Below are positions 2,070 to 19,626 of a DNA stretch of 20,090 nucleotides, in pieces. A model generated the notes under the pieces. The model was not told the origin of the DNA, ran no database searches, and saw only the letters and a list, made by a program, of their open reading frames with translations. Origin of the DNA: a virus (lineage: Duplodnaviria; Heunggongvirae; Uroviricota; Caudoviricetes); IMG/VR virus record IMGVR_UViG_3300010998_001290. One strand, written 5' to 3'. Every line of letters starts with the position of its first letter. Position 1 is the first letter of the stretch. A program made the translations under genes and the position numbers.

Positions 2070-2105
2070 CAATGATTGATGAGAACAATCAAGAAAGGAG
2101 AATTA

Positions 2106-3059: not shown

Positions 3060-3080
3060 AGAACAACACCACAAATACAG

Positions 3081-3109
3081 AAAAGGGGCTTCGGCTCCTT
3101 TTTTGTTTT
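3081..3109 (+). terminator. Intrinsic terminator (element copy A)
   Basis: AAAAGGGGC-TTCG-GCTCCTTTT stem with C(UUCG)G loop followed by TTGTTTT. Confidence 0.9.
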
Positions 3110-3159
3110 GTCTTACGGTATTTCATACTAATATCAGCAATACTTTCTGATGAATGGAG
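3103..3159 (+). promoter_or_regulatory. Repeated promoter/operator/leader element, copy A
   Basis: TTGTTT 3103-3108, 17 nt, TACTAA 3126-3131, GATGAATGGAG 3149-3159. Confidence 0.65.
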
Positions 3160-3173
3160 AAAGAGGTGAATTT

Positions 3174-3614
3174 ATGAACATTGAAGAAATTATTGTAATG
3201 AACAGGAATGAAGCGGTAAAGTACGCTCATACACAGCATTCCGAGAAAGCGATGATGATATCCATAAACGACATCGGCTCTGGCACGAAAGTGATGAAAA
3301 CGACTGCAAATGGTATATTCGCATTGCTTAAGCTCCAGTTTGACGACGTTGAGGATCCCGATATCAATGCTATTACTGAAAAAGACGCTGACCTTATTGC
3401 AAAGTTCGTTAAGAACAATGTTGATAATGCGGACAGGATAATAGTACATTGCAGTGCTGGAATCTCAAGATCAGCAGGCTGCGCGGCGGCTATTATGAAG
3501 TATCTTTACGGTGATGACAGTAAGATTTATGACTGTGCAAAGTATAGACCTAACAGTACTGTGTACAGGAGAGTTTTAAACGCTATGGTCGGAAAGGATT
3601 TCCCTCAAAATTAA
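3174..3614 (+). CDS. Cys-dependent (PTP/dual-specificity-type) phosphatase
   Basis: Catalytic P-loop IVHCSAGISRS (HCX5R) with an upstream FDD acid loop. Start likely ATG 3174 behind GAGGTG (ORF track start 3150). Confidence 0.85.
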   Translation: MNIEEIIVMNRNEAVKYAHTQHSEKAMMISINDIGSGTKVMKTTANGIFALLKLQFDDVEDPDINAITEKDADLIAKFVKNNVDNADRIIVHCSAGISRSAGCAAAIMKYLYGDDSKIYDCAKYRPNSTVYRRVLNAMVGKDFPQN

Positions 3615-3705
3615 AACAAATCTGCGAAAGACTAAGAGTTTACTTAGGACGACTTCCCGATGTTTGGGAATTTGAAGCAAGAAGGTTATAAGGAGAAATT
3701 ATTAT

Positions 3706-4407
3706 ATGAAAAATGTCAATTTTCCCTATAATATGATTGAAGAAATACAGCATGGCTGGAAAGGTGTAAAATACTGGAGACATATACAGGATGCGTATGG
3801 CGAAACTCCGTTGACAGACGATTTGGGAGGCACACTGTTGTACTTTATTTACGAAGAGTTACCTAAAGACCTAAGCAAGCTCTTTATCCAGAAGTACGTA
3901 ATGGGAAAATCATATAATGAAATTCAAGAGGAATTAGGAATTTGTGATGTAAAAAAGGAACTTGCAAAGGGATACGAGATTCTACTTCCCAAAATTGTCG
4001 CATGCTCTGAAGTTCTTTATTTAGGTCTAAAGAAGAATAAGCGCAGCTTATGGGATTACCGAACAGGTTATTATGCTGCACTCGACGATCTACGAAAGGT
4101 TGTGACACAAAAAAATCTGAGCATTGATGCAATAAAAAAGGCGGCAGGGATAGAGGATAATTCGGAGAAAAAAGTTAAAGTGTTTGGGAATGCTAAGTTA
4201 AACTCGGACATAAATGTACTCGGTTTACCAAATGTAATCCATAACGCTTTACGCCGGAATGGAATAAATACTGTTTCGGAGTTAGTTTCACTGAGTCGTC
4301 AAGATATAAACAACATAAACGGAATCGGCTGTTACTATACCGTGAAAATAATTAAAAGCATTGATGAATATTTAGGATGCACCCCAAAAGGGTGGGAAAA
4401 GCCATAA
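3706..4407 (+). CDS. Protein with sigma70 region-4-like HTH and C-terminal RNA polymerase alpha-CTD-like domain
   Basis: C-terminus INVLGLPNVIHNALRRNGINTVSELVSLSRQDINNINGIG follows the alpha-CTD HhH pattern. The middle segment LPKDLSKLFIQKYVMGKSYNEIQEELG resembles sigma region 4. AAGGAG RBS. Confidence 0.7.
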   Translation: MKNVNFPYNMIEEIQHGWKGVKYWRHIQDAYGETPLTDDLGGTLLYFIYEELPKDLSKLFIQKYVMGKSYNEIQEELGICDVKKELAKGYEILLPKIVACSEVLYLGLKKNKRSLWDYRTGYYAALDDLRKVVTQKNLSIDAIKKAAGIEDNSEKKVKVFGNAKLNSDINVLGLPNVIHNALRRNGINTVSELVSLSRQDINNINGIGCYYTVKIIKSIDEYLGCTPKGWEKP

Positions 4408-4424
4408 ATAAAAGGAGAAAAACT

Positions 4425-5021
4425 ATGGGGCACGCTTGTGGAATACTTACTTTCGACACACAGGACAGAAATATGATAAGGACGGAATGCGACCGCTGGG
4501 CTGCGTCCAATGCTGATTACGAGGAAACTCGCGGCATGGGCACTCTTCCCGGACCTATCAAGTTTACGAGCTTGATATTTGACACATACAGAGAGGCTGA
4601 AGAGTACCTTGATGGAACATTCGGGGACTATCGACAGACCGCTGTACAGTATAGGTCTTATCCTGAAGCTCCTGCTGAAACTAAGGCTATACAGGACTTG
4701 ACTCGCCGCTGTAATGAATACAGAGAGCGGATAAGGGAGCTTGAAAAGCCACACTATGCAGGGGTGTCTTCAAAGACTGTGAAGTGTAAGAAATGCGGTT
4801 CTTCTTTGTCTACCGAATACTGCGGTAAAACGTGGTACAACAATTGTCCGGTTTGTAGAACGGAGTTGAGACCTCGGACAACCATTGACAAGATAGTCAA
4901 ATATAAGACTGCCATCAATGAGCTTGAGAAAAAGAGGCAGGAAGAAGAGAAGAAACAGCTGCTTAAGCAGAAGGCAAAGTCCAAGCTCAAATGGGCTGTT
5001 GCCTGCGAAGTACATTGCTGA
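4425..5021 (+). CDS. Zinc-ribbon and coiled-coil hypothetical protein
   Basis: CKKC...CPVC pair flanked by charged helical segments. Start ATG 4425 behind AAAGGAG (ORF track start 4377). Confidence 0.7.
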   Translation: MGHACGILTFDTQDRNMIRTECDRWAASNADYEETRGMGTLPGPIKFTSLIFDTYREAEEYLDGTFGDYRQTAVQYRSYPEAPAETKAIQDLTRRCNEYRERIRELEKPHYAGVSSKTVKCKKCGSSLSTEYCGKTWYNNCPVCRTELRPRTTIDKIVKYKTAINELEKKRQEEEKKQLLKQKAKSKLKWAVACEVHC

Positions 5022-5042
5022 AAGGTAAGAAAGGAAGCTAAA

Positions 5043-5465
5043 ATGAAGAAGCTCTTCAATACAACGCAGAGCGATTTGCGTAAGTATAATGGAGAAATCG
5101 TTGAAGTAGGCGATGAGCTTACTGACGAAGAAAGAGATCCTGAAGTCGGAAGAATGTGGCGTATAACCTTTTCTGACGGCGGCTGGACAGATGCATTCGA
5201 AGATGAACTGAACGATTTACCGGAAGGAGAAAATGACATGAATAAGAAGTATTACTATGATTTCGGCTATTTTTTCAGCAGAAAGGAAAGCGGCAGCTGC
5301 CGTGTAACCCTTGACACCGACCTTGGTGACAGTGACATCGATGTCGATGAGGCTATATCTGTGGCACTTAAGGCGGGCGAACTCGATGAAGAGTACGCAG
5401 ATAACATCGTGTATGTAGAGAAGCTTACTGAAGAGGAAGCTAAGGAAATGGGGTTTGAGATATGA
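5043..5465 (+). CDS. Acidic hypothetical protein, possibly two fused small genes
   Basis: 140-aa ORF with AAAGGA RBS; internal GAAGGAG plus in-frame ATG at 5238. Confidence 0.7.
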   Translation: MKKLFNTTQSDLRKYNGEIVEVGDELTDEERDPEVGRMWRITFSDGGWTDAFEDELNDLPEGENDMNKKYYYDFGYFFSRKESGSCRVTLDTDLGDSDIDVDEAISVALKAGELDEEYADNIVYVEKLTEEEAKEMGFEI

Positions 5466-6025
5466 TCCTGTATCACGGCACAGATTACGAGTCGGCTCTG
5501 AGTATAATGGACAACGGATTTAACAATCCGAACACTGTATGGTTGTGCTCTGAAGCTGATAAGACTTATCTGGTTGAAGAAAAAGGCAATGACGGCGAGG
5601 CATTACGCTTCGCCTTCGAAGCCGGACAGATAGCTGCGGCGAATAAGGGTTCAACTAATTCTTCTGTAGGAATCATCAGAATAGAAATGTCTGATAAGAC
5701 CGCAGACGAAGAGCTTTACCCTGACAATTCGTGTGAGAATATGACGGATTGCTGGCAGATAGACTCTGACAGGCTCAATCAGCTTGCAGACGAGGGCAAA
5801 GTGATAATATCACTTGGAATATGCGAAAACGCTTATAATCCGAACCTTAGACCGTTCTATCTTGCAACGCTTTCAAGTGAACACTACAAGGCTGTTGATG
5901 ACCCGCAGCTTGAAGAAGCGATAGAAATCGTTTCACGGTGCGGGGATTTTCCTCTGGAAGACGTTATCGGATACCTTGAAGTAGACAGCTTTGACGAAAT
6001 CTTTAAGTATAAGATCACTGCTTAA
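5462..6025 (+). CDS. Putative ADP-ribosyltransferase-fold protein
   Basis: N-terminal LYHGT...SIMDNGF resembles the first catalytic strand of PARP/ART-like domains; ATGA overlap with the upstream gene. Downstream catalytic residues were not confidently located. Confidence 0.45.
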   Translation: MILYHGTDYESALSIMDNGFNNPNTVWLCSEADKTYLVEEKGNDGEALRFAFEAGQIAAANKGSTNSSVGIIRIEMSDKTADEELYPDNSCENMTDCWQIDSDRLNQLADEGKVIISLGICENAYNPNLRPFYLATLSSEHYKAVDDPQLEEAIEIVSRCGDFPLEDVIGYLEVDSFDEIFKYKITA

Positions 6026-6044
6026 GAAATAGGAGGATTTTATT

Positions 6045-6587
6045 ATGCAGCACATTATAGGAATTACAATCGACGGGATCAACTACAGCGCGATGGTGTC
6101 TAAGAACGATGAGTTCTATTTAGCAGGAGGCAGCCTTTACGCTACTGTCGGCATCTGGAGCGATACAGAAGACGGTGAGCCTAAGGGAGCTTCGCTCATC
6201 ATATTCGATATGGATACGATGGACGCTGTTTACGGCGAAAAGCTCGATGACTATGTCACCGGCGATGTTGATCCGAAGATGGAGAGACTGAACGATATAC
6301 TTGTTCAGGAAAGGATATTAAGATATGTCGCATCTCGTAATGCCGACAATAAGAACGGCGGTAACGCGAATGCGGACGATGACGACAGCGGCGAAGATAA
6401 AGATTACTACGTTACTTTCGCGGCAAACGTGAGATATGTGGCGGCTGTAAGAGCCTCCTCTCTTGAGGAAGCGAAGAAGTTCGCTCAGAACGACTTTGAG
6501 GCTGCCTGCTTCGGCAAGCTGGAGTTCGTTGACAGTGACCTTATAATGGTCGAAGACGAAGACGGCAACTATCTCTACGAAAAGTAA
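6045..6587 (+). CDS. Acidic hypothetical protein
   Basis: AGGAGG RBS. The C-terminal YYVTF...VRASSLEEAKKFA is weakly reminiscent of DpnD/PcfM-like small domains. Confidence 0.7.
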   Translation: MQHIIGITIDGINYSAMVSKNDEFYLAGGSLYATVGIWSDTEDGEPKGASLIIFDMDTMDAVYGEKLDDYVTGDVDPKMERLNDILVQERILRYVASRNADNKNGGNANADDDDSGEDKDYYVTFAANVRYVAAVRASSLEEAKKFAQNDFEAACFGKLEFVDSDLIMVEDEDGNYLYEK

Positions 6588-6602
6588 TCGGAAGGAGTAC
6601 AT

Positions 6603-7007
6603 ATGATACAGACATTATCAATACCACAGTGCAATCCGGCAGAATTCGATAAGGTGTTCCTTGTCGTGAGGAGCATATCTATTCTTGAAAAGAGAAAGGA
6701 TAAAATCCTTGACTCTGCGGAGCAGCTCGCTTGCCTTAGCCCCTCTAAGAAGTTGTTCTTCCAGTACCGCGATTGGGTCAAAGAAGGCAACTGGAACCTT
6801 AATACATTCAATGATAAGTATGTTCCTTGGTTCCTCCGCGATATATCTGCGGACAAAGAGGCACAGGAATGGCTTGACAGACTTGCTGCCGAGGAAAAGG
6901 ACAATAAAATAGCCCTCCTCTGCTTCTGCAAGGATAAGGCGCTGTGTCACAGGACAATTATCGGCAAGATGCTTGTTGATAGAGGCTGTAATGTCATAAT
7001 CGACTAA
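6603..7007 (+). CDS. DUF488-family protein
   Basis: LSPS..L, then F...Y, then IALLCFCKDKALCHRTII (the LLC...CHR signature). AAGGAG RBS. Confidence 0.7.
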   Translation: MIQTLSIPQCNPAEFDKVFLVVRSISILEKRKDKILDSAEQLACLSPSKKLFFQYRDWVKEGNWNLNTFNDKYVPWFLRDISADKEAQEWLDRLAAEEKDNKIALLCFCKDKALCHRTIIGKMLVDRGCNVIID

Positions 7008-7018
7008 AAACAAAGCAG

Positions 7019-7054
7019 TTTGTACACACCTGTCTTGTGACGGGTGTGTACAAA
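7019..7054. repeat. 16-bp-stem inverted repeat (hairpin or bidirectional terminator)
   Basis: TTTGTACACACCTGTC-TTGT-GACGGGTGTGTACAAA, with one G:T pair. Confidence 0.85.
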
Positions 7055-7072
7055 ATAATGAGAAAAAAGAAA

Positions 7073-7119
7073 CAACTACCCACCACTGAAGTAGTGGGAT
7101 TGCGAAACAATCGGGTTGA
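7073..7119 (+). mobile_element. Truncated IS200/IS605-type end (IscB omega-RNA/HEARO-like 5' segment)
   Basis: CAACTACCCACCAC-TGAA-GTAGTGGGATTG-CGAAA-CAATC-GGGTTGA resembles, from memory of the family, the (GT)CAACTACCC...hairpin...GGG(C)TTG...CAA(G)C...GGTTGA layout. No tnpA, tnpB or iscB is adjacent. Confidence 0.5.
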
Positions 7120-7140
7120 ATTGACAAGAAAGGACACGAA

Positions 7141-7932
7141 ATGAAAATACTTTATATTCAGAAATGGAACAAGAAAACCGGGTATCACGATGTAGGATAC
7201 GCTATATCTGATGAAGGCGAGAAGAGCTACGGTGACTATACAGGACGCTTTATCTCCTACATAGACGACGGTAATGTAGTCTCTATCAACGCGGATTGCC
7301 TTGACAAGACAGTCGTTAATATCGAGGATGAGATCATAACCGTTAAGATGCACTCCAGAAAGTGCGATAAATCGACGTTTATGAGGAAGGTCGCTGCTGT
7401 TATCGCCGAATATCAGGAAGATTATCTGAAGTCTGACTTTGGATTATTCATCAGTAGAGCGACAGAAGCTAATAGGCGTAAAACGGATAAGGATATCAGA
7501 GAGGCATATGAAGACCTCAGGGTAAACACTCCGTTTAAGCCCTACAAGATAGAGACGATAAAGCGCACCTACGGCAAAGGCAGTTATATGTATCGCTTCG
7601 CTTGGAATGCTATTGACATGAGCTTTGCGGTAGATAAGATGGCAATCCTTGACGGCTGGAATGGCGTGTTTACCATACAGGATGGCAGCTCAAAGAGGTC
7701 TACCCGCGAGGTAAGGGAAGACACAATCGGTCGTATTTTCGAGGGAACCGGCTTCGATACCTACTGGATGTACAGCATATCGGATGATATAACGTCGTTC
7801 AAGGAAGCTGTATTTGAAAAACTGAAGCTCAACGCAAAGCTTATCGAAGATACTAAGAACAAGCTTGACTACTATCTTAAGTGTAATGAAGCGCTTCTCA
7901 AAGGGGTGGAGAGTTCAATCAATAACTCTTGA
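7141..7932 (+). CDS. Hypothetical protein
   Basis: 263-aa ORF with AAAGGA RBS; no recognised motif and no IscB PLMP/HNH/RuvC motifs. Confidence 0.75.
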   Translation: MKILYIQKWNKKTGYHDVGYAISDEGEKSYGDYTGRFISYIDDGNVVSINADCLDKTVVNIEDEIITVKMHSRKCDKSTFMRKVAAVIAEYQEDYLKSDFGLFISRATEANRRKTDKDIREAYEDLRVNTPFKPYKIETIKRTYGKGSYMYRFAWNAIDMSFAVDKMAILDGWNGVFTIQDGSSKRSTREVREDTIGRIFEGTGFDTYWMYSISDDITSFKEAVFEKLKLNAKLIEDTKNKLDYYLKCNEALLKGVESSINNS

Positions 7933-7957
7933 CCTCTATCAGAGTTCATGGTATAAT
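7929..7957 (+). promoter_or_regulatory. Near-consensus sigma70/sigmaA promoter with extended -10
   Basis: TTGACC (7929-7934), 17 nt, TG-n-TATAAT (7952-7957), upstream of the macrodomain gene. Confidence 0.8.
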
Positions 7958-7979
7958 GCTTAAGAAAGGGTGAGATAGT

Positions 7980-8495
7980 TTGAATAAATTAATATATGAT
8001 GAAAAGGTTCAGGATCTCTTCAATCTGCCGGAAGATTTCTTTCTGGCGCACTGTATCAGTGCTGATTTCGCGCTCGGCAAAGGAATAGCGGTACAGTTCA
8101 ATAAGCACTTCGATATGAAGAACAAGCTTTTGGGACTGTATCCGGACGGCGTAACAGAAAAGTGGAAGCTTGATAACGCTAAGAACAACCTTGGCGTTTA
8201 TCGCTGTATCTTAGTTGACAGGGTGTTCAATCTTGTAACTAAGGAGCGGTATTATCATAAACCCACATACGATACACTCGGTTCTTCGCTGCTGGCGATG
8301 AGAAGGCTGTGTACAAGGAACGGCGTGACTAAGATAGGAATGCCCCTCATAGGCTGTGGACTTGATCGGCTTGCATGGAACAGGGTTTCAGATCTGATCA
8401 TAGACGCATTCCTGAATTCTTGTGTAGAACATATCGTTGTATGCAAGATGGAAGGCGAAGAGGTTCACGAAATATTTGAAAGGACGGATACATAA
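7980..8495 (+). CDS. Macrodomain ADP-ribose hydrolase, TARG1/OARD1/DarG (Poa1p-like) class
   Basis: LAHCISADFALGKGIA, FNLVTK...KPTY, MPLIGCGLDRLAW motifs. TTG start behind AAAGGGTG. Confidence 0.85.
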   Translation: MNKLIYDEKVQDLFNLPEDFFLAHCISADFALGKGIAVQFNKHFDMKNKLLGLYPDGVTEKWKLDNAKNNLGVYRCILVDRVFNLVTKERYYHKPTYDTLGSSLLAMRRLCTRNGVTKIGMPLIGCGLDRLAWNRVSDLIIDAFLNSCVEHIVVCKMEGEEVHEIFERTDT

Positions 8496-8575
8496 TGAGT
8501 AACGAAACATTGGTAAAAGAAATATTTGAATTCATCAAGAATACAGGAAGTGTTTTATTTATTGAGTATAAATAA
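8495..8575 (+). CDS. Putative 26-aa small protein (MSNETLVKEIFEFIKNTGSVLFIEYK)
   Basis: TAATG stop/start overlap with the macrodomain gene and AAAGGA upstream; it fills the gap before the 8591 gene. Absent from the ORF track because of its size. Confidence 0.4.
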   Translation: MSNETLVKEIFEFIKNTGSVLFIEYK

Positions 8576-8590
8576 GGAAGGAAAAATATA

Positions 8591-9232
8591 ATGTCGAACA
8601 AATATGACCTCACATTTTATGATAACTGGGTATCGGAAGGCAAAGAACAGAGCTTTATTACAATTTTTGACCGAATAGTAGGCACGAAAGTACGTTTCAG
8701 AGATAACGCCGACCGAAAGAAAAACTATATGTTCCATTCTCCTGTAAAAGCCGCTTTATATTCTAACGGTATGTTAAGGTGGGAAGTATCAACATCACTT
8801 CAAGGAAGTCCTGTACGGCTGTCTCTTCTTTTCAACAAAGAAGAGTTGAAAACATACGACCGCTTCCTGACACTTAAAGTCATTTGTGGTGAAGAAAACA
8901 GAGTATGTGCATACATTATGTTTAAGATAAAGCCTTGTGAGGTAAAACCCTTGAAAAAGGGCGGCATTACCGAAGGTAGTGAGATTGTCGGATATGATAT
9001 ATCGTATCAGAACGGATGCGATAGCGCTGTGCTTCATTCCATTCTGTCGCTTGATGAAAAATCCTACGCCACATGGCTCGAAAAATCAATAAAAGAAGAA
9101 TATCAAGCCGTTGTCACCGACGCTTTAAAGGATAAAGAGCTGTCTGACCCGTTTGCGGTAATACGTTACCTGACAGATAAAGCCGAAGATGACATAAAGA
9201 GGGCGAAGAAGCTTACAAATCAAATGCTTTGA
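8591..9232 (+). CDS. Hypothetical protein
   Basis: 213-aa ORF with AAGGAAGGA RBS; no recognised motif. Confidence 0.75.
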   Translation: MSNKYDLTFYDNWVSEGKEQSFITIFDRIVGTKVRFRDNADRKKNYMFHSPVKAALYSNGMLRWEVSTSLQGSPVRLSLLFNKEELKTYDRFLTLKVICGEENRVCAYIMFKIKPCEVKPLKKGGITEGSEIVGYDISYQNGCDSAVLHSILSLDEKSYATWLEKSIKEEYQAVVTDALKDKELSDPFAVIRYLTDKAEDDIKRAKKLTNQML

Positions 9233-9255
9233 GAGAAAAAGAAGGTGAACAATCT

Positions 9256-10446
9256 ATGTTTGAGATAAAAGGAAAGTACGCAAGTGCGACGGTATATACT
9301 GATTTGATAGAAGAAGAGGCTGTAGGGCAGATACTCAATCTTTGTAATCAGCCTGTAGCTGAGGGGTCTTCTATAAAGATTATGCCCGACGTTCATGCAG
9401 GCAAGGGCTGTACTATCGGCACTACTATGACTATAAAGGATAAGGTCGTTCCGAATCTTGTGGGCGTAGACATCGGATGCGGGATGTTGGTAGCGTGTCT
9501 TGGCAAAGTCCCGTTCAATTTTTCCTCGCTTGATAAAATCATTCGTCAGGAAATTCCCTCTGGCTTTGATATACGGGAAGAGGAACACTTTTATATGGAT
9601 GAAATCGATCTCACCAAACTCTGCTGCTATGAACATATAAATGCAGAGAGAGCGGCACTTTCTCTTGGAACTCTGGGCGGGGGCAATCATTTTATAGAGG
9701 TTGACCGTGCGGACAACGGCGATATGTACCTTGTTATCCATTCTGGGTCTCGCCATTTGGGAGTTGAGGTAGCGTCCTATTATCAGGAAGAAGCGTACCG
9801 CAGACTGTCAAGAAAGTTCAATAAGGAAGCCCAGACCGAACTTATAGCTCGGCTGAAAGCAGAGGGAAGAGTACAGGACATTCAAAGCGAACTGAAGAAG
9901 TTGACCGCATATAGTGTTCCAAAGGAATTTGCTTATTGCGAGGGAGAGCTGTTCGACCAGTATATACATGATATGCGTATTGTTCAGAAGTATGCGGCAT
10001 TAAATCGAAAGGCTATGCTTTCGGAGATATGTAAGCATACATGGAAGAGCAACTACACGTTTACTACCATTCATAACTATATCGACACCGAGAACATGAT
10101 ACTTCGCAAAGGCGCTGTATCGGCTCAGGCAGGAGAAAAGCTTATCATCCCTATCAATATGCGGGACGGCTCTCTTATCTGTACGGGCAAGGGAAATCCT
10201 GACTGGAACTGTTCAGCACCTCACGGGGCAGGACGGTTGATGTCTCGGTCCAAAGCAAAACAGGAAATTACGCTTGAAGAGTTTGAGAACTCTATGCAGG
10301 GCATATACACAACATCGGTGAACTCATCTACTCTTGATGAGTCTCCTATGGCATACAAGTCAATCGAAGATATTCTCGGTAATATAGGAGATACGGTAGA
10401 GGTAAACGAAATCATAAAACCTGTATACAACTTCAAGGCATCATAA
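9256..10446 (+). CDS. rtcB: RtcB RNA ligase (2',3'-cyclic phosphate/3'-P to 5'-OH)
   Basis: MPDVHAGKGCTIG, VGVDIGCGM, LGTLGGGNHFIE, IHSGSR, HNY, RKGA, SAPHGAGR..SR and DESPMAYK motifs. Start ATG 9256 behind GAAGGTG. Confidence 0.95.
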   Translation: MFEIKGKYASATVYTDLIEEEAVGQILNLCNQPVAEGSSIKIMPDVHAGKGCTIGTTMTIKDKVVPNLVGVDIGCGMLVACLGKVPFNFSSLDKIIRQEIPSGFDIREEEHFYMDEIDLTKLCCYEHINAERAALSLGTLGGGNHFIEVDRADNGDMYLVIHSGSRHLGVEVASYYQEEAYRRLSRKFNKEAQTELIARLKAEGRVQDIQSELKKLTAYSVPKEFAYCEGELFDQYIHDMRIVQKYAALNRKAMLSEICKHTWKSNYTFTTIHNYIDTENMILRKGAVSAQAGEKLIIPINMRDGSLICTGKGNPDWNCSAPHGAGRLMSRSKAKQEITLEEFENSMQGIYTTSVNSSTLDESPMAYKSIEDILGNIGDTVEVNEIIKPVYNFKAS

Positions 10447-10462
10447 TTCACCATATAACAGG

Positions 10463-10490
10463 AAGGACGGGCAACCGTCCTTTTTGTTTT
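10463..10490 (+). terminator. Intrinsic terminator (element copy B)
   Basis: AAGGACGG-GCAA-CCGTCCTT plus T tract. Confidence 0.9.
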
Positions 10491-10540
10491 GTCCTTCCAT
10501 ATACCATACTAATATTAGCATTATTATATGACGACTGGAG
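10484..10540 (+). promoter_or_regulatory. Repeated promoter/operator/leader element, copy B
   Basis: TTGTTT 10484-10489, 17 nt, TACTAA 10507-10512, GACGACTGGAG 10530-10540. Confidence 0.65.
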
Positions 10541-10569
10541 TGTATGTTGTCAGGAAAGGAAGTATAAGA

Positions 10570-11451: not shown

Positions 11452-11476
11452 TGTACAGAAAGAGTAGGGTGCAAAT

Positions 11477-12403: not shown

Positions 12404-12500
12404 GGTTACTTCTTACTTGACAATTCAAGCGGGACACGTTTATCCCTGTATGTACAAAAAGGATATGTATGAACAGGTTGATTCGTATACCGCTAAAAAG

Positions 12501-12535
12501 AAACAAAGGAAGCTGTAAAAGGCTTCTTTTGTTTT
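12501..12535 (+). terminator. Intrinsic terminator (element copy C)
   Basis: AAACAAAGGAAGC / GCTTCTTTTGTTT 13-bp inverted repeat. Confidence 0.8.
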
Positions 12536-12585
12536 TATGCGCAGGATGACATACTATTATTAGTATTTTGTTTTGAAGAATGGAG
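12529..12585 (+). promoter_or_regulatory. Repeated promoter/operator/leader element, copy C
   Basis: TTGTTT 12529-12534, 17 nt, TACTAT 12552-12557, perfect ATACTA-TTAT-TAGTAT, GAAGAATGGAG 12575-12585. Confidence 0.65.
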
Positions 12586-12620
12586 GCATATGATTATGCT
12601 GTATGAAAGGACTGGTATTT

Positions 12621-13559
12621 ATGGTTATTAACAATGAAGGTTTAGTTGTAGCGATTGAAGATAAGGATATTGATAAATCTGGGGTACTTTTCTTTCCAGA
12701 AGAAGCGAAAGAGATACATGCGAATAAGTTGACAAATCGTATCTCGAAAAAGGCAAAATCTAAAATTCAGTCAATCGACTTCAATAAGATCATTTTCATT
12801 AATGGAAGTCTTGCAGAGATCATTGGGGCAGCAGAGGCTGCAACGGTAAAGTATATAAATGCTCCGAATTTGGAAATTGTTTCCCTGCATTTATTTGACA
12901 ATTGTAATGAATTGAAAAAAGCTTCGCTTGATACTGCAAAGAGAATAGAAGCGGAATCTTTTTGGAATTGTCAAAATTTGCAGACGATAAACTGCCCTAA
13001 TATTACATTTATAGGGGATAATGCTTTTGCACGGTGTTTCAAACTGAGTTCTTTTGAATTTCCTAAGACACTAAAGAGTATAGGAAAGTATTCTTTCCTT
13101 ATGTCAGGAATAAAAAGTGTTACTATTCCCGAAGGGGCGGTACTGGGAGCATCTTTTGTAGATTGCAAACAGCTTGAAGTTGTGCGTATACATGATTTAA
13201 GCTCAATAAGGAGTACACCACTAACAGAGCCTTTTAAGGGATGCGAAAAGCTTGAGCAAGTGATAGTTGATGAACTTAATACCGATGATTGCTTTCTGCT
13301 GACAAGTGCTATGCACGGATACACTTTGCAGTGTAAGCTCGAAAATGAAACAAAGAGAATATTCTGTTTTTCTGATGAAAACATACTGGACGATGATGTC
13401 GTTGAGGTCACACAGATTATCGGTGATGCAGAGAATGATAAATACACAATCTGTTTGTTATTAGACGGTACATATCGCGTATGCACTAAAAACGAACTCA
13501 GCAGCCCGCTTAAGAACATTGAAGAAATTCAGGAATGGGTTGATGCTTTTTTGAATTGA
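12621..13559 (+). CDS. BspA/LRR_5-type LRR protein, paralog 6
   Basis: IGDNAFARCFKLSSFEFPKTLKSIGKYSF (canonical LRR_5); C-terminal LLLDGTY. Start probably ATG 12621 (ORF track start 12603). Confidence 0.9.
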   Translation: MVINNEGLVVAIEDKDIDKSGVLFFPEEAKEIHANKLTNRISKKAKSKIQSIDFNKIIFINGSLAEIIGAAEAATVKYINAPNLEIVSLHLFDNCNELKKASLDTAKRIEAESFWNCQNLQTINCPNITFIGDNAFARCFKLSSFEFPKTLKSIGKYSFLMSGIKSVTIPEGAVLGASFVDCKQLEVVRIHDLSSIRSTPLTEPFKGCEKLEQVIVDELNTDDCFLLTSAMHGYTLQCKLENETKRIFCFSDENILDDDVVEVTQIIGDAENDKYTICLLLDGTYRVCTKNELSSPLKNIEEIQEWVDAFLN

Positions 13560-13572
13560 AAGTGAGAATATT

Positions 13573-14529
13573 ATGCGAATTAGAATTAACGAAGAGGATA
13601 GGAGTATTATAGTTTTTGAAGCGACAGATATAAAAGATGGGGTTTTTACATTTTCTGATAACGTAGATGAATTTGATCTTGAAGGGTTCGAGTTTACAGA
13701 GGAATTCAGCAAACGTACGTCTGAAGTCAGGATTATTGACTTTTACAATGTTGAAGATGTACTCTGTTATTCAATTATGGGTGGCACATCGATGAATGAA
13801 TTTTGGGATGTTTTTCCGAATCTTGAAGAAGTGCGGGCACCAATGTTGACATATATCGGCGATGGCTTTTTGAAGGATTGCAAAACACTTAAAACAGCGT
13901 ACTTTGATTCCGCAAAAGAAATAGGCTGCGAAAGTTTCAGTGACTGTATTGCTCTTAGAAGGGTATATTGTCCAAAAGTCGAGATAATTGGCAACGAGGC
14001 ATTTTATGAATGCGGCAGTATGCACAGTATATATCTTCCTGACACGCTTAAGGAGATAAGGACAAACGCGTTTATGTGTTCAGGGCTCTATACGATAGAT
14101 ATTCCGAAGAGCGTAAAGCTTTACGACGAGGCTTTCTGTGATTGTGAGCAGTTGAAACATATACGCATGCATGATGTTCGGCAGTTTAACAAAGGAGAAG
14201 CCACAAAAGCGTTCTCGGCTTGTGTAAACCTTAAAACCCTTGAGCTTAATGTGGTCAACAAGAAGGATAGATATCCTTCGGTGGGCAGAGGCTGTATATA
14301 TACTGTAACACACAAAGAAGAGTGTAAAAAGATACTGTGCTTAAATGAAGATGATGCTTATGAGTATGCGCAGATCATATCAGGTATTTCTGAAATAGAT
14401 GGGGGTGCTCTGTATGTTTTGGCAGATGGCGGCTATATTATCAACATTAATGATGGAGAGATTATGACCGGGCATCTTGACAACATAAACGAAGCAAACG
14501 AGTGGATATCAGCCAATATATCGGCATAA
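13573..14529 (+). CDS. BspA/LRR_5-type LRR protein, paralog 7
   Basis: IGNEAFYECGSMHSIYLPDTLKEIRTNAF; C-terminal EYAQII...LYVLADGGY. Confidence 0.9.
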   Translation: MRIRINEEDRSIIVFEATDIKDGVFTFSDNVDEFDLEGFEFTEEFSKRTSEVRIIDFYNVEDVLCYSIMGGTSMNEFWDVFPNLEEVRAPMLTYIGDGFLKDCKTLKTAYFDSAKEIGCESFSDCIALRRVYCPKVEIIGNEAFYECGSMHSIYLPDTLKEIRTNAFMCSGLYTIDIPKSVKLYDEAFCDCEQLKHIRMHDVRQFNKGEATKAFSACVNLKTLELNVVNKKDRYPSVGRGCIYTVTHKEECKKILCLNEDDAYEYAQIISGISEIDGGALYVLADGGYIININDGEIMTGHLDNINEANEWISANISA

Positions 14530-14533
14530 CAAC

Positions 14534-14570
14534 AAAAAGAGGCGAGAAATTCGTCTCTTTTTTTTGTTTT
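14534..14570 (+). terminator. Intrinsic terminator (element copy D)
   Basis: AAAAAGAGGCGA-GAAAT-TCGTCTCTTTTT plus T tract. Confidence 0.9.
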
Positions 14571-14620
14571 GTAGTGGCAAATAACATACTATTTATAGTA
14601 TTATAATCAGACGAACGGAG
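14564..14620 (+). promoter_or_regulatory. Repeated promoter/operator/leader element, copy D
   Basis: TTGTTT 14564-14569, 17 nt, TACTAT 14587-14592, perfect ATACTA-TTTA-TAGTAT, GACGAACGGAG 14610-14620. Confidence 0.65.
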
Positions 14621-14656
14621 ACTTTTGGTTGTTGAAGTTCAGAAAGGAAGGTATGT

Positions 14657-15586
14657 ATGGAAGTAAAAGATGGGATTGTTACGAAAATAACAAACGAAGA
14701 TGTTGTTGACGGAAGTCTGGTGTTCCCGGATGACGCTATCGTCATAAAGAATACTGATGTTTCCGAGTTAGACAGCGAGAACATTACCAAGACGGTAAAC
14801 TTTAATAACATAGAAGAAATCGTTTCGTTTAGATTTGTTACAGATTATATAACCAAATCAGCGAGATGTGTGTGTGAACACGCGGAAATTGTCAGAATGC
14901 CCAAACTGCAAATGATAAAAAGAGAACAATTCAGCAATTGTGACATAAAAGAGGTTTATCTTGATACTACTGAGGTTATAGGAAATAAAGCTTTTTACTA
15001 TTGTACACGTCTTACCAAGGTGTTTATGGGTAATTCCCTTAAAACAATAGAAAATGGGGCGTTCATAGGAACGAAAGCGCTGAAGGCAGTTGATATACCG
15101 GAAAGTATAGTTTATATACGAGCTCAGGCGTTTTTTGAGAGTGGAATTAAATCCGTTTCAATTAAGGGTTCACCTGAAATTGATGCAACCGCTTTTAGGA
15201 ATTGTCCTAACCTTAAGCGAATAATGCTTCATTCCTACGACAGTAAGAGGATAAAAATCAGTGCGTTTTTGGAGTGTACGGAGTTGTCTGACATTGTTGT
15301 TTTTACAAAAATATCGGAAAAAACAAAGATGCCTTATATTGGGCACGGACAGATTTATACTGTACTTGAATGTTATAATGGCGTCAGAAATAAAACGATG
15401 TTTATTAATATCATTGATGATAAGACCCAGAAGAGAGATACGGTGAAGATAGTTCAAACACTTGATGTTAACGGCACAATGATATATGTTGTACAGAACA
15501 ACAATTATATCATCAAATCCGGAGACGACATCAAGGTTATGAACAAGGAAGAACTCTTTAGGTTAATGAGAAATGAGGGTATATAA
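14657..15586 (+). CDS. BspA/LRR_5-type LRR protein, paralog 8
   Basis: IGNKAFYYCTRLTKVFMGNSLKTIENGAF; N-cap MEVKDGIVTKITNEDVVDGSLVFP. Confidence 0.9.
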   Translation: MEVKDGIVTKITNEDVVDGSLVFPDDAIVIKNTDVSELDSENITKTVNFNNIEEIVSFRFVTDYITKSARCVCEHAEIVRMPKLQMIKREQFSNCDIKEVYLDTTEVIGNKAFYYCTRLTKVFMGNSLKTIENGAFIGTKALKAVDIPESIVYIRAQAFFESGIKSVSIKGSPEIDATAFRNCPNLKRIMLHSYDSKRIKISAFLECTELSDIVVFTKISEKTKMPYIGHGQIYTVLECYNGVRNKTMFINIIDDKTQKRDTVKIVQTLDVNGTMIYVVQNNNYIIKSGDDIKVMNKEELFRLMRNEGI

Positions 15587-16536
15587 TGATAATTACTGAA
15601 AGATATGGTACCGATGGCATTATGAGAAAGACGGCCACTGATATCGAAGAGAAAGATATTGTTGATAATGTATTGACTTTTCCTCCGGATGTCACTGCTG
15701 TACAGGACTTAAGAGGAAATTATCTCTTCCCGAAAGCTGGAGACGACGTATACAAGATCGACTTTTGTAATGTAGTTGATATAAGTGTTACGAATAAAAA
15801 CTACAATCACATGATATTCAGGCTTTTGCCAAACGCAGAAGTAATAAGCGCTCCTAAGCTCAAAAGAGCATCGGCAAGTGTTTTCGCAAGAAGTCAGGTA
15901 CGTCAGTTAAATCTTCCATCGGTAACGAAAGTTGATAATGAAGCCTTTTTTGAGTGCTATTATCTTGAGGAAGTTGATCTCCGTAATGCTAAAGAGATAG
16001 GAAGTTCTGCTTTTGACTCCTGCCGAAGCCTGCATTCTGTTATTTTCTCTGATTGTTTAGAGAAAATCGAATCTTATGCATTCTCGAAATGTAATAAGCT
16101 CGAAGAGATCAATATTTATGCTGCTATACCGGATGACGCGGCTTTCCACGATTGCTCTGCCCTAAAGGTAATCAAGACAAGCGAGATTGAAATACTTGGA
16201 AGAGGCTGGATAGACACCTGCATGGCACTTCAGCGTATAGAACAAAGTAATGAATTATATCTCCCAGAAATAAGGGTTTTCAAGTTCCCATTAGTAACAG
16301 GAGATAACAACGCACTATACGAATATGAAGTTGCAGCACCTAATGCTACTCTAAAAGTTGTATCCTGTCCGAAAGAGATGCTTGTGTATGAGTATGTGCA
16401 GAGGATAAACAGCGGAAATACGCTTATATATGTTCTCTATGGCGGAGATATGTTCGCAGTAAAATGTGATAACGAAGTCAAAATCTGCAATTTTGAAGAT
16501 ATGCAGGAACTTATAAGGTTTCACAGTCTATTTTGA
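15586..16536 (+). CDS. BspA/LRR_5-type LRR protein, paralog 9
   Basis: IGSSAFDSCRSLHSVIFSDCLEKIESYAFSKC; TAATG coupling to paralog 8. Confidence 0.9.
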   Translation: MIITERYGTDGIMRKTATDIEEKDIVDNVLTFPPDVTAVQDLRGNYLFPKAGDDVYKIDFCNVVDISVTNKNYNHMIFRLLPNAEVISAPKLKRASASVFARSQVRQLNLPSVTKVDNEAFFECYYLEEVDLRNAKEIGSSAFDSCRSLHSVIFSDCLEKIESYAFSKCNKLEEINIYAAIPDDAAFHDCSALKVIKTSEIEILGRGWIDTCMALQRIEQSNELYLPEIRVFKFPLVTGDNNALYEYEVAAPNATLKVVSCPKEMLVYEYVQRINSGNTLIYVLYGGDMFAVKCDNEVKICNFEDMQELIRFHSLF

Positions 16537-16559
16537 AACGTGGAAGAAAGAGGTATATA

Positions 16560-17459
16560 ATGATTATAGAAGATCATGTTGCACGAAAAATAGAGAAAGA
16601 AGATATCACGAGTGATACTTTTGTATTTCCGGATGAAGTCACTGAGGTCTATGCGGATGTAACAGAAATCACTGAGATTGCTCAGCGCATAAAAACTGTA
16701 GACTTCAATAATGCTGAGGATATAAAGTTTATCGTGTTAGGAGCTGCGACCTCCAAAATCGATGTTTTTGCGCCTAATGCAGAGAACATCATATTCCCAA
16801 AGGGTAAATCTTTGTTTAATGCCAATTTTATGGACAATAAAAGCATAAAAAGGGTTGAAGCAGTCAATGCCGAAATGGTGGAATATAGGGCATTTTCAGG
16901 TTGCAATAACCTTGAAACGGCAATTGTACCAAATTGTATAAATATTCGTGATGATGCTTTTTGTGGTACTTCACTAAAGAAGATCGTGTTTTCAGACGAT
17001 ATTCTCTATATTGGAGCAAGAGCTTTTTATTCGTCGCTAATATCGACAATGGATGTTCATAACGCAAAATGTTCATCATACGCATTTACAAAAAGTTCCA
17101 TTGAATGTCTTAAGGTAAATTCATTAAGCAAACTGAATAGATGTGCATTACAAGGATGCAGCTCACTAAAGCAGATAGAAATAAACGGTAAACTACCTCG
17201 GTCCAATAAGGGTAATTACTATCCCAATATAGGACGAGGACATGAATACAACGTTATGTCTACAATAAGTAAGAACAAGATAAATGTTGTATGCGGCACA
17301 TATACACATACATATTCGCAAAAAATGGAGTATGAGGGGAAAACTCCTGATAAGAGTTTCCTGCTCTATGCGTTAACAGACGGACGATATTATATTGTAT
17401 CTGATTGTATCGAAACAGTCACTGATATAGACGGGATAAACGCTTTTCTGCATATCTGA
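16560..17459 (+). CDS. BspA/LRR_5-type LRR protein, paralog 10
   Basis: AFSGCNNLETAIVPNCINIRDDAFCG; C-terminal LYALTDGRY. Start ATG 16560 behind AAAGAGGT (ORF track start 16533). Confidence 0.9.
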   Translation: MIIEDHVARKIEKEDITSDTFVFPDEVTEVYADVTEITEIAQRIKTVDFNNAEDIKFIVLGAATSKIDVFAPNAENIIFPKGKSLFNANFMDNKSIKRVEAVNAEMVEYRAFSGCNNLETAIVPNCINIRDDAFCGTSLKKIVFSDDILYIGARAFYSSLISTMDVHNAKCSSYAFTKSSIECLKVNSLSKLNRCALQGCSSLKQIEINGKLPRSNKGNYYPNIGRGHEYNVMSTISKNKINVVCGTYTHTYSQKMEYEGKTPDKSFLLYALTDGRYYIVSDCIETVTDIDGINAFLHI

Positions 17460-17470
17460 CAACCAAAAAT

Positions 17471-17507
17471 ACAAAAAAGGGGCTATATATGGCTCCTTTT
17501 TTGTTTT
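17471..17507 (+). terminator. Intrinsic terminator (element copy E)
   Basis: ACAAAAAAGGGGC / GCTCCTTTTTTGT 13-bp stem; the 3' arm GCTCCTTTTTTGTTTT is identical to copy A. Confidence 0.9.
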
Positions 17508-17558
17508 CCTTCGTAAAACAGCATACTAATTATAGATTTTATTAACTGACGACCGGAG
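17501..17558 (+). promoter_or_regulatory. Repeated promoter/operator/leader element, copy E
   Basis: TTGTTT 17501-17506, 17 nt, TACTAA 17524-17529, GACGACCGGAG 17548-17558. Confidence 0.65.
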
Positions 17559-17606
17559 ATAAGTTGAAGGTTAATTCGTACATAAATTGCATAAGGAGGG
17601 AATATA

Positions 17607-18542
17607 GTGAAAATCATAGACGGAAAGCTGGTTCAGATAGATTCAAAGGATATCTCCTTGAATGGGACGCTAAGGTTTCCTGAAGAACTGACAGAACTGG
17701 AAATAATACTGGACGAACTCGTCATTGATGAGAAAGATAAGGGAAGAATAAAGAGTTTAGAGCTTGAAAAATTGACAAAATGTCAAGTGCTAAAGCGTGG
17801 ACAGATGGTCAAGGGTTATCAAAAGACGTCGTTTTCAGAGATTGCGCCTACCTTGGCTGCGGTCAGAGCAAAAGAACTGTTGGAGATTGAGTCTTGGATG
17901 TTTTACAAATGTGAAAAGCTTGGACTTGTATGGGCTCCAAAAGCAACAAATGTGAGGTCTCACGCTTTTGAGGGGTGCGGCAAATTAGAGCATTTTTCGG
18001 CGCCTTCATTGAAAAGGATAGGGCTTAAGGCTTTCTACGGGTGCTCAAGCCTATACCATATGACTATCCCGGAAGGTGTTGAATATATTTCAGCGAACGC
18101 CTTTACCAACAGCGGACTCAATGAAATAGAGCTTACAGGTAATGTCGAGGTAAAGATGCACGCCTTTCAGTACTGCATAAACGCCGAAACAGTAAGGCTA
18201 CGTTCTTTTGAGAAGATAGATATGCACGCATTCGATTTGTGTATGAATATCAAGGAGTTTATACTGTCCGAGGATTATGAGAAGAGCAAGAGCTATAAAC
18301 TTCCATTCATCACCGGCGGGTACTTGTACACATACAAAGTCTCGCACAAAGACAAGCATATGAATATTATATGTTTCAGGAGAAGTGGGATGGAATGTAC
18401 TTCGGAGTATGTCCAGCAAATCGACTGCAACGGAAAAAGCATTTATATGTTGGCTGACGGAGAATATATAGTGAAAACCACCAACGACTATTGCTTTGTT
18501 TCAGACTCAGAGGCTTTGAAAAAAGCTCTTTACGACGAATAA
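17607..18542 (+). CDS. BspA/LRR_5-type LRR protein, paralog 11
   Basis: IGLKAFYGCSSLYHMTIPEGVEYISANAF; C-terminal EYVQQI...IYMLADGEY; GTG start behind AAGGAGG. Confidence 0.92.
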   Translation: MKIIDGKLVQIDSKDISLNGTLRFPEELTELEIILDELVIDEKDKGRIKSLELEKLTKCQVLKRGQMVKGYQKTSFSEIAPTLAAVRAKELLEIESWMFYKCEKLGLVWAPKATNVRSHAFEGCGKLEHFSAPSLKRIGLKAFYGCSSLYHMTIPEGVEYISANAFTNSGLNEIELTGNVEVKMHAFQYCINAETVRLRSFEKIDMHAFDLCMNIKEFILSEDYEKSKSYKLPFITGGYLYTYKVSHKDKHMNIICFRRSGMECTSEYVQQIDCNGKSIYMLADGEYIVKTTNDYCFVSDSEALKKALYDE

Positions 18543-18556
18543 GAAAAGAAGTATGT

Positions 18557-19489
18557 ATGAAATTAGAAGGAAATGTAGCCGTTTTTGAACAGGACGATAT
18601 GTGTAAAGAGCGTCTGATAGTTCCACCGGCGGCAAAAAAGGTTCGGTTCACATTATACGATATTCCGAGTGCCGGAAAGTCATTTAGCAAAATACGGGAA
18701 ATTGATTTCGGAAATGCTGAAGAGATCGAGATCCTTGACAAAGATGTTTTGGGGAATGTTATAGATTGTTCTATCTGTAGAGCAGCAGAGAAAATAGAAC
18801 ACATATTCGGACAAAAGCTAAAGAAAGTACCTGCCGGCGCTTTCATCTCGTGTAAGATGTTAAAGACCGTTATACTTCCCGAAGTCGATGAGATTGGCGA
18901 TGACGCTTTTAATTGGGACGACAAGCTTGAAATGATAACCGTTCCTAAAATCAAGAGAATAGGAGCGAGAGCGTTTGCAAACTGCAACAGACTTAGCAGG
19001 TTCAAGTTTCCTAAAGAGCTTCAGCAGATCGGAATGAGCGCCTTTTTTAACTCAGGCATAAGGAACATTGAAATTCTCGGAGATACCATAGTTGCAGATA
19101 GAGCTTTTAGCCAATGCAACGAGCTGGAGAAAGCAAACTTAAAAGACGCTGAAAATATCAGCGAGTGTGCTTTTGAGGGTTGTTCGCATCTTCACTATAT
19201 CAAATTAGAAAAGAATAGCAGCATCCGAGGGCGTGTCTTTTCTGCTGCGTATGATTATTGCCTTGACATATCTGGCGATAAACACTTCTACGTCAGCAAG
19301 CTGGGTAAGTATTATGAGTACTGCCAAAAGATCATTCAGGATGACATTGGGGCAGCTTATATTTTAAAAGACGGAAGGTGCTTGATATGGATGGTAAACG
19401 CCATTGTTTACAAAGGCGAAGATACGAATAAGATATTGTTTGACGATGCGCTTATCGCCATAAAAACAATGAATGCAAGTGTAAGCTAA
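18557..19489 (+). CDS. BspA/LRR_5-type LRR protein, paralog 12
   Basis: IGARAFANCNRLSRFKFPKELQQIGMSAF; C-terminal EYCQKI...AYILKDGR. Start ATG 18557 (ORF track start 18491). Confidence 0.9.
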   Translation: MKLEGNVAVFEQDDMCKERLIVPPAAKKVRFTLYDIPSAGKSFSKIREIDFGNAEEIEILDKDVLGNVIDCSICRAAEKIEHIFGQKLKKVPAGAFISCKMLKTVILPEVDEIGDDAFNWDDKLEMITVPKIKRIGARAFANCNRLSRFKFPKELQQIGMSAFFNSGIRNIEILGDTIVADRAFSQCNELEKANLKDAENISECAFEGCSHLHYIKLEKNSSIRGRVFSAAYDYCLDISGDKHFYVSKLGKYYEYCQKIIQDDIGAAYILKDGRCLIWMVNAIVYKGEDTNKILFDDALIAIKTMNASVS

Positions 19490-19500
19490 CCTTCAGCTAT

Positions 19501-19538
19501 AAACAAAAAGGGACTCTTAAAGGGTCTCTTTTTGTTTT
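19501..19538 (+). terminator. Intrinsic terminator (element copy F)
   Basis: AAACAAAAAGGGACTC-TTAAA-GGGTCTCTTTTTGTTT 16-bp stem. Confidence 0.9.
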
Positions 19539-19590
19539 GTTGGCTATTCTTGTATACTATATTAAAGTAGTATTATTCAGACGAACGGAG
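19532..19590 (+). promoter_or_regulatory. Repeated promoter/operator/leader element, copy F
   Basis: TTGTTT 19532-19537, 17 nt, TACTAT 19555-19560, GACGAACGGAG 19580-19590. Confidence 0.65.
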
Positions 19591-19626
19591 TATTCGGGTA
19601 ATCATTTGACAGGAAAGGAAGGAAAA

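Follow-up and report, generated by a model that had tools for sequence, protein, structure and literature searches.

Fused terminator–promoter cassettes as probable transcription-unit boundaries in the leucine-rich repeat gene array of a putative ruminant-gut mobile element

The DNA analysed here is a stretch of 20,090 bases (hereafter the window) of the viral record IMGVR_UViG_3300010998_001290, which exact protein look-ups placed, with 0 mismatches, at bases 290–20,379 of a JGI metagenome contig of 301,622 bp, Ga0139362_1000266 of data set 3300011008. All the long open reading frames (ORFs) of the window are on the plus strand, and six copies of a short intergenic cassette, named A to F (Table 1), are found among them, the genes flanking these cassettes being paralogues that encode BspA-type leucine-rich repeat (LRR) proteins (PF13306). 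An earlier note on this DNA had described the cassettes as fused terminators and promoters that separate self-contained gene modules. In the present analysis, the window was folded with ViennaRNA, shuffled, and searched for patterns over its whole length, motif and gene content were examined along bases 1–44,013 of the contig (44 kb of the 301,622 bp), and ten syntenic loci, taken from relatives that share about 95% identity and whose contigs reach 230 kb, made up the comparison set.

The contig appears to belong to a mobile element of about 300 kb, either a phage or a plasmid, of ruminant-gut bacteria of the Bacillota type. Strong Shine-Dalgarno sites upstream of the genuine start codons (for example, AGGAAAGGAAG and AAGGAGGG) point to such a host. 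Look-ups in sequencing runs detected the element in gut samples of cattle, sheep, and other animals from about a dozen studies, and cluster look-ups pointed to related contigs as long as 400 kb. The 44 kb of contig showed no structural genes, and a megablast search of GenBank phages with the window gave no match.

Six sites of the window matched the pattern TTGTTT-N17-TACTAW, every one of them on the plus strand and at the positions listed in Table 1, compared to the 0.01 expected by chance, and none of 100 dinucleotide-preserving shuffles reached this number. When the six copies were aligned, TTTTGTTTT and ATACTA were found to be invariant, and the 14 bases between them and the sequences of the upstream hairpins were unrelated. 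The base before ATACTA is T in copy F and C in the other five, defining a −10-like box [C/T]ATACTAW. In addition, a third box, GA[CTA]GA[AC][CT]GGAG (box 3), is present in all six copies, 17–19 nt after TACTAW, and nowhere else in the window. The hairpin preceding each copy has a predicted free energy (dG) of −18.8 to −21.8 kcal/mol and a z-score of −5.7 to −6.9, against shuffled-sequence means of −4.5 to −7.2 kcal/mol. All six show the arrangement of an intrinsic terminator, in which a GC-rich hairpin at the 3′ end of a gene leads directly into a U-rich tract; they lie 56–147 nt past the preceding stop codon, and four of the six hairpins are among the best terminator-like sites of a consensus scan. 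The cassette also made up the top direct-repeat families that an unbiased repeat search recovered from the window. The earlier note had reported six TTGTTT/TACTA(A/T) copies with a fixed 17-nt spacing, differing spacers and loops, and a terminator hairpin ahead of each, all of which were recovered at the same positions, with stable predicted folds in every case (z about −6). Its gene layout was recovered as well, with two or three LRR genes headed by each of B to E, one by F, and a non-LRR block by A. Its box TACTA(A/T) is real, although it lacked the C/T-A prefix of [C/T]ATACTAW, and the third box had been missed.

Table 1. Cassettes and putative transcription units in and next to the window (window positions, unless contig positions are indicated; TTGTTT and the tokens after it are given in the order T-tract, −10-like box, box 3).
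Feature	Position	Strand	Parts or gene content	Predicted transcription start (approximate)	dG (kcal/mol); z	Remarks
Seventh cassette	about 85 nt ahead of the window (contig position 205)					heads LRR unit 1–3059
LRR unit before A	1–3059	+	genes 1–717, 737–1180/1122–2069, 2076–3059			closed by putative terminator A
Cassette A	3077–3159	+	hairpin 3077–3106; TTTTGTTTT 3101–3109 (TTGTTT 3103–3108); CATACTAA 3124–3131; GATGAATGGAG 3149–3159	3137–3139	−19.7; −6.2	boxes invariant in orthologues of 9 relatives
Unit A, non-LRR block	3174–10446	+	internal sigma-A-type promoter 7929–7957			closed by putative terminator B
Cassette B	10457–10540	+	hairpin 10457–10488; TTGTTT 10484–10489; CATACTAA 10505–10512; GACGACTGGAG 10530–10540	10518–10520	−21.8; −5.7	orthologue variation confined to loop and spacer
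Unit B	10570–12403	+	2 LRR genes			between two cassettes
Cassette C	12499–12585	+	hairpin 12499–12536; TTGTTT 12529–12534; CATACTAT 12550–12557; GAAGAATGGAG 12575–12585	12563–12565	−19.4; −6.2	site of the extra unit in relative L146
Unit C	12603–14529	+	2 LRR genes			between two cassettes
Cassette D	14534–14620	+	hairpin 14534–14562; TTGTTT 14564–14569; CATACTAT 14585–14592; GACGAACGGAG 14610–14620	14598–14600	−21.0; −6.4	
Unit D	14657–17459	+	3 LRR genes			between two cassettes
Cassette E	17471–17558	+	hairpin 17471–17504; TTGTTT 17501–17506; CATACTAA 17522–17529; GACGACCGGAG 17548–17558	17535–17537	−18.8; −6.9	
Unit E	17607–19489	+	2 LRR genes			between two cassettes
Cassette F	19501–19590	+	hairpin 19501–19537; TTGTTT 19532–19537; TATACTAT 19553–19560; GACGAACGGAG 19580–19590	19566–19568	−19.8; −6.1	
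Unit F	19606–20090	+	one LRR gene (start 19606 or 19627)			continues past the window end
Cassette following F	contig position 20904 (window position 20615)					

Along the 44 kb, the gene strand carries 22 sites of the motif [CT]ATACTAW and the opposite strand a single one, where a Markov model expects 3.5 sites per strand. Between 19 and 20 of the 22 gene-strand sites fall in non-coding sequence, which makes up 9% of the 44 kb, and the sites lie from 2 to about 290 nt ahead of the next called start. Upstream of the window, the relatives carry only two genes on the minus strand, each of them with a minus-strand motif ahead (L140 −2439 and −861). In several of these candidate promoters (L140 +3469, contig positions 26957 and 26209), the Shine-Dalgarno site starts only 13–15 nt past CATACTAW, so that the transcription start must fall just downstream of the box, a position expected of a −10 element and incompatible with a −35 role. 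Taken together, these patterns identify [C/T]ATACTAW as a −10-like promoter core that is intergenic and tied to the gene strand. In the divergent intergenic region of locus L140 (2384–2560), two putative CATACTA promoters stand back to back, 82 nt apart, one of them for a minus-strand gene encoding a solute-binding-protein-like product and the other for an LRR gene.

From the sequence, we infer that transcription ends and begins at the cassettes, where it starts, that the T-tract has a −35 role, and what kind of factor reads the promoter. On this basis, each cassette very probably joins an intrinsic terminator to a promoter, and it probably acts as a compact transcription-unit boundary of the element. 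The GC-rich hairpin, extended by A/U pairs and followed by the U-tract, would stop the upstream unit, and the promoter would be formed by the −10-like [C/T]ATACTAW and an upstream element, a T-run that is physically the U-tract of the terminator; in the terminator-linked copies, TTG stands before this run, 17 nt ahead of TACTAW. Transcription would then start about 6–8 nt past TACTAW, and the resulting leader would carry the box GAYGAMYGGAG at about +12 to +22, ahead of the genuine Shine-Dalgarno site and start codon. The reader would most likely be an RNA polymerase with a dedicated sigma factor, or one modified in another way, and the cassettes would also serve as recombination points for the gain and loss of whole units.

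The position of the T-tract was analysed in the 15 terminator-linked cassettes found along the 44 kb. In every one of them, the C of CATACTA follows the G of TTG at a distance of exactly 18 nt, whereas the stretch of Ts that links the stem to this G varies from 4 to 8. The tract also changes in length between relatives (from 6 to 7 in cassette A and from 8 to 6 in D), and these indels are found only upstream of the G, with the distance from G to CATACTA unchanged. A fixed distance on one side and a variable one on the other imply that the T-tract is anchored to the promoter and not to the hairpin. In five orthologous cassettes, variable columns amounted to 0 of 75 in TTGTTTT plus CATACTAW versus 15 of 70 in the spacer (Fisher p = 7.6e-6), supporting purifying selection on the boxes relative to the spacer. 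A compensatory change between relatives, from G-C to A-T, was detected in the hairpin of the cassette located upstream of the window. On balance, we favour the view that the T-tract works as an upstream promoter element.

Nine CATACTA promoters depart from this standard layout, seven of them with no terminator in front and none with TTG at the −35 position, so TTG is not a general requirement. Most of the nine have four or five consecutive Ts at that position, often within TTTTTCC, and some show a conserved box further upstream. Our reading is that the T-run, at about −32 to −29, is the common upstream element and that only the terminator-linked class has TTG in addition. Terminator-less promoters at contig positions 26209 and 36400 (L152) and at L140 2521 present a GTGTACGAAAGACAATAGTT-like box that ends just before the T-run, and they also share a conserved TTTTTCC...CTGAAcAAT spacer. 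This second promoter class, with the GTGTACGAAAGACAATAGTT-like upstream box, is absent from the window. The terminator-linked class may be factor-independent and the copies with the upstream box activator-dependent.

Several observations weigh against the cassette as a single fused boundary. In addition to the absence of TTG from terminator-less CATACTA promoters, one contig cassette has its terminator, and hence its TTG, 6 nt further off, and another has TTTTATTTT; the promoter-less terminator before the primase gene (contig position 40020) also carries TTTTGTTTT; and, in five of the six window copies, the predicted fold lengthens the stem by pairing the G with the C of an ACA located upstream, so part of the conservation of this G could serve the hairpin. 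Furthermore, no sigma factor or polymerase gene is present in the gene tables of the 44 kb, three of the four indels found in the comparison with relatives are not at cassettes, and all known copies come from one narrow lineage, which makes the comparative depth shallow. The sole RNA run (X20) yielded low-depth contigs and is too shallow to show starts, and its lower depth in the bins holding cassettes C to E is unusable as evidence of starts or stops. A terminator and a promoter merely packed side by side could account for part of this, with CATACTAW sufficient on its own, either as the −10-only promoter of an alternative sigma factor or as the single-element promoter of an element-encoded polymerase. 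The fixed spacing of TTG, which matches TTGACA in only three of six positions as TTGTTT, would then be due to common descent, compaction, or the needs of the extended hairpin, and not to a −35 function. This arrangement is nevertheless difficult to reconcile with a G-to-CATACTA distance kept in every terminator-linked case despite unrelated hairpins and spacers, with T-tract indels that respect it, and with a T-run placed at exactly the same position even where no terminator exists, and we consider it unlikely. Thus, from the earlier proposal that the U-tract doubles as a −35 box, the promoter-fixed spacing and the conserved boxes stand, whereas the general need for TTG does not, and TTTTGTTTT is not exclusive to promoter-linked terminators.

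With respect to promoter specificity, the cassettes match TTGACA/TATAAT in 6–7 of 12 positions (3/6 for TTGTTT and 3–4/6 for TACTAA/T), and a sigma-70 scan with a cut-off of at least 9/12 lists none of the six. Their 17-nt spacing is that of sigma-A promoters, but their hexamers are not, and an A is found at position −7 in three of the six copies. In contrast, a near-perfect sigma-A promoter with an extended −10 (TTGACC-17-TGgTATAAT) is present within unit A, in the short gap ahead of the gene for a macro-like phosphatase (7980–8495, phrog_335); its boxes are kept in 10 of 10 relatives, with spacer variation in one of them (L146). The existence of invariant non-consensus bases beside a true host-type promoter argues for a separate specificity, and we judge it rather likely that the cassette promoter is read by something other than the plain sigma-A holoenzyme.

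The candidate gene of the window in this respect, 3706–4407, encodes a protein with an RNA polymerase alpha C-terminal domain (alpha-CTD) and a weak match to sigma region 4. Most relatives lack it, as do the RNA and DNA contigs of three runs, whereas their cassettes are unchanged; thus, it is not an obligatory factor. An exact search of IMG/VR with a 52-mer of this gene gave no match, and no related loci were found for the alpha-CTD protein. In two relatives (L144 6207–7313 and L146 2519–3628), the neighbouring dual-specificity (DSP) phosphatase is fused to Sigma70_r4 and alpha-CTD in one protein of 368–369 amino acids. The need for an element-encoded sigma factor or activator, suggested earlier, is plausible from the invariant bases and the coexisting sigma-A promoter, but no such factor was found in the 44 kb. 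A more ambitious scheme would have most genes of the element driven by a private promoter class with its own sigma factor or modified polymerase, its −35 element being merged with the U-tract of a bidirectional terminator, so that polymerase released there would find itself on the following promoter and could start again, and the 90-nt cassette being used as a recombination handle for building and reshuffling the LRR array. This would be a counterpart, in a giant Bacillota element, of the stem-loop cassettes of T4-type phages discussed below, with a transcription specificity of its own; it is conceivable but doubtful as a whole.

Box 3 is missing from about half of the CATACTA promoters outside the window, indicating that it is accessory. 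Apart from one fixed mismatch, its GAAYGGAG is similar to the anti-Shine-Dalgarno complement GAAAGGAG, and it is possible that the box acts as a 5′-proximal ribosome-binding stabiliser or as a protein-binding site. Shine-Dalgarno-like stabilisers near the 5′ end of mRNAs exist in Bacillus, such as the STAB-SD of cryIIIA and the polypurine stabiliser of phage SP82. As in STAB-SD, the GGAG of box 3 lies some 20 nt past the predicted 5′ end, a good way ahead of the true ribosome-binding site, although box 3 has conserved non-purine positions (GAYGAMY) for which a ribosome-binding stabiliser would have no need. No leader hairpin was supported, as the six leaders fold no better than shuffles (z −1.4 to +1.8), and the leader arm pairs with its own downstream region no better than with those of other cassettes (permutation p = 0.23).

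The 17–19 nt between boxes 2 and 3 could also suggest a shifted register, with CATACTAW as a −35-like box, GAYGAM as the −10 of a sigma factor of the extracytoplasmic function (ECF) type, and the start just past GGAG. A single RNA contig of run X20 ends at position 3160, right past the GGAG of cassette A, and gives a weak hint in that direction; however, the end of one contig of depth 7 is not a start site. Moreover, the frequent absence of box 3 deprives many of these promoters of the supposed −10, and in several of them, the Shine-Dalgarno site and the start codon are 13–30 nt from CATACTAW, too close for a −35 element, making the shifted register very improbable.

A palindrome, ATACTA-N4-TAGTAT, spans the −10 box and the predicted start in cassettes B, C, and D (10506–10521, 12551–12566, and 14586–14601), where it occurs with at most one mismatch (0.07 expected), and several further copies exist along the contig. 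A role as an operator is possible, as is one as a weak antisense −10 directed towards the bidirectional terminator. As its right half is degenerate in half of the copies, it was treated as a secondary feature. If CATACTA were no more than half of such an operator, bound by a dimeric regulator, the true promoter would have to be elsewhere. Nonetheless, the left half is invariant in 25 of 25 non-redundant sites, whereas the right one is degenerate or absent in about half of them, A, E, F, and most terminator-less promoters among these, and no other conserved −10 candidate precedes the Shine-Dalgarno sites located 13–15 nt downstream. We regard an operator with a separate promoter as quite improbable, and a regulator bound over −10/+1 would in any case be compatible with CATACTAW as the promoter core.

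The comparison with relatives also revealed changes in unit content. Locus L146 contains an extra segment of 1059 nt (11953–13011) that consists of one cassette and one LRR gene and is inserted exactly where cassette C begins. The hairpin of the extra cassette is that of C and its leader that of B, so the unit is flanked by two cassette copies, the product expected from recombination between cassettes as described for the promoter-early stem-loop (PeSL) cassettes discussed below. The other three indels are away from cassettes: segments 714–2165 and 3612–4342 are lost, and 7008–7123 is replaced. In place of the first of them, relatives have 113–115 other bases, and the second is skipped in three runs. 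Apparent joints at 10541>12546, 11051>17694, and 3159>7 were discarded as rearrangements, corresponding to short-sided cross-alignments between cassette copies. The idea of self-contained modules that can be duplicated or shuffled is thus backed by one clean case, L146, and is not extended by the remaining indels.

Hairpin-bearing repeats between gene cassettes of the same strand, together with a unit-sized indel bounded by two copies, could also be expected from recombination sites or a mobile repeat with no transcriptional role, similar to integron attC sites or to miniature inverted-repeat transposable elements (MITEs). Inspection of the alignment found no RYYYAAC...GTTRRRY cores of attC, and the gene tables of the 44 kb contain no integrase. 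The units hold 1 to 12 genes, so there is not one repeat per gene, and the strength of the hairpin, but not its sequence, is conserved between copies. The position of CATACTAW with respect to Shine-Dalgarno sites and start codons, and an orientation that follows the gene strand, fit a promoter, which leaves a purely recombinational role scarcely credible.

Among known systems, the PeSL cassettes of the T4-type phages RB49 and phi1 carry promoters that match the host sigma-70 consensus and a hairpin in five positional subclasses, and recombination between them leads to insertion or deletion of whole gene units (PMC2839356). They are the closest known system in function. Both are small intergenic combinations of a promoter with a terminator or attenuator stem-loop, which in PeSLs can abut or overlap the −35 and which is predicted here at a dG of −19 to −22 with its U-tract overlapping the −35 position; both are located ahead of accessory genes in plastic regions; and the unit indel bounded by cassettes has its counterpart here in L146, against three indels elsewhere. 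Unlike PeSLs, the present promoters match sigma-70 in 6–7 of 12 positions and have an invariant non-consensus CATACTAW, their hairpin is always upstream with the U-tract overlapping the −35, an extra leader box is present, and the element is a phage or plasmid of an apparently Bacillota-type host, known from 44 kb. Given a promoter that does not follow the host consensus and an element that may be a phage or a plasmid, we do not consider the cassettes to be members of the PeSLs.

With intrinsic terminators, including bidirectional ones, the cassettes share the GC-rich stem, the short loop, the U-rich tail, and a 5′ A-tract that pairs with the U-tract; they differ from them in that the U-tract always has a G at a fixed distance from the next promoter and not from the stem. 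In Bacillus subtilis, the −10 pattern of sigmaG is CATnnTA, which CATACTA fits. As in sporulation-sigma promoters, the −10-like box starts with CATA in five of the six copies. In Clostridioides difficile, sigmaK promoters have CATATAAT at −10 and AC at −35, and those of sigmaE ATA at −35 (PMC3789822), and homologues of sporulation sigma factors exist in Bacillota phages (PMC9429907). In contrast with these promoters, the −35 region here is TTTTGTTTT or a T-run, and not AC, ATA, or GnATA. Finally, SigN is a sigma factor encoded by plasmid pBS32 of B. subtilis, with boxes TTTACGTTT and AGATATAA (PMC6751061). Its regulon is similar in that one promoter type different from sigma-A lies ahead of most units, alongside a few sigma-A promoters. 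However, its boxes are unrelated to the T-run and CATACTAW, which makes it an analogue in logic only, and no sigma gene was found in the 44 kb.

If the cassettes act as proposed, they would provide a transcription map of an uncultured 300-kb element, with unit boundaries, predicted starts, and a non-host promoter class, as well as a mechanism for the growth and shrinkage of an LRR array by whole units. The rule of a T-run or TTG exactly 14–18 nt upstream of CATACTAW could be used to locate the sigma factor or polymerase that reads them, and compact terminator–promoter parts of private specificity could be useful as insulated expression parts in Bacillota. The fusion of terminator and promoter with modular shuffling is already established in T4-type phages, so the advance concerns the variant and its host range and not the principle. 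The window adds a U-tract whose exact placement is set by the promoter, a comparison with promoters that have no terminator, an internal control in the form of a conserved promoter of the host type, and a clean unit indel.

Searches beyond the comparison set returned few matches. The three-box pattern gave none in IMG/VR, one in the JGI metagenome contigs (an unrelated contig of 1.8 kb), and one in the GTDB genomes (a metagenome-assembled genome of Pacearchaeota), the last two being read as chance. The relaxed two-box pattern had 56 single matches in unrelated IMG/VR contigs, which correspond to background. Two window proteins have distant homologues, at 44% and 54% identity, on contigs that carry no CATACTA cassette; together with the lack of real matches in the three collections, this indicates that the cassette is known only from a narrow lineage. 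The cassette was likewise found in none of 80 related loci examined on the basis of RtcB, and no Rfam family corresponds to it. In run X3, contigs of 19–92 kb from a more distant genome have the cassette cores as their sole matches to the window; these cores are preceded by other hairpins and followed by box 3.

Regarding gene content, unit A includes genes for a DSP-type phosphatase, the sigma-r4/alpha-CTD-like protein, a DUF488 protein, the macro-like phosphatase, and RtcB. The strong terminator ending in TTTTGTTTT ahead of the primase gene (L152, about 17440–17495) abuts the Shine-Dalgarno site of this gene, which, with no promoter between them, would rely on read-through. In the first LRR unit, ORFs 737–1180 and 1122–2069 overlap and may be a single frameshifted LRR gene, and contigs from runs X9 and X3 show a B-like cassette ahead of a sequence resembling the window from position 1105 onward. 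Finally, the intergenic stretch 7007–7141 contains two inverted repeats, TTGTACACACC...GGTGTGTACAA and CCCACCACT...AGTGGTGGG, and in its place, relatives carry 413 nt with a DUF4313 gene.

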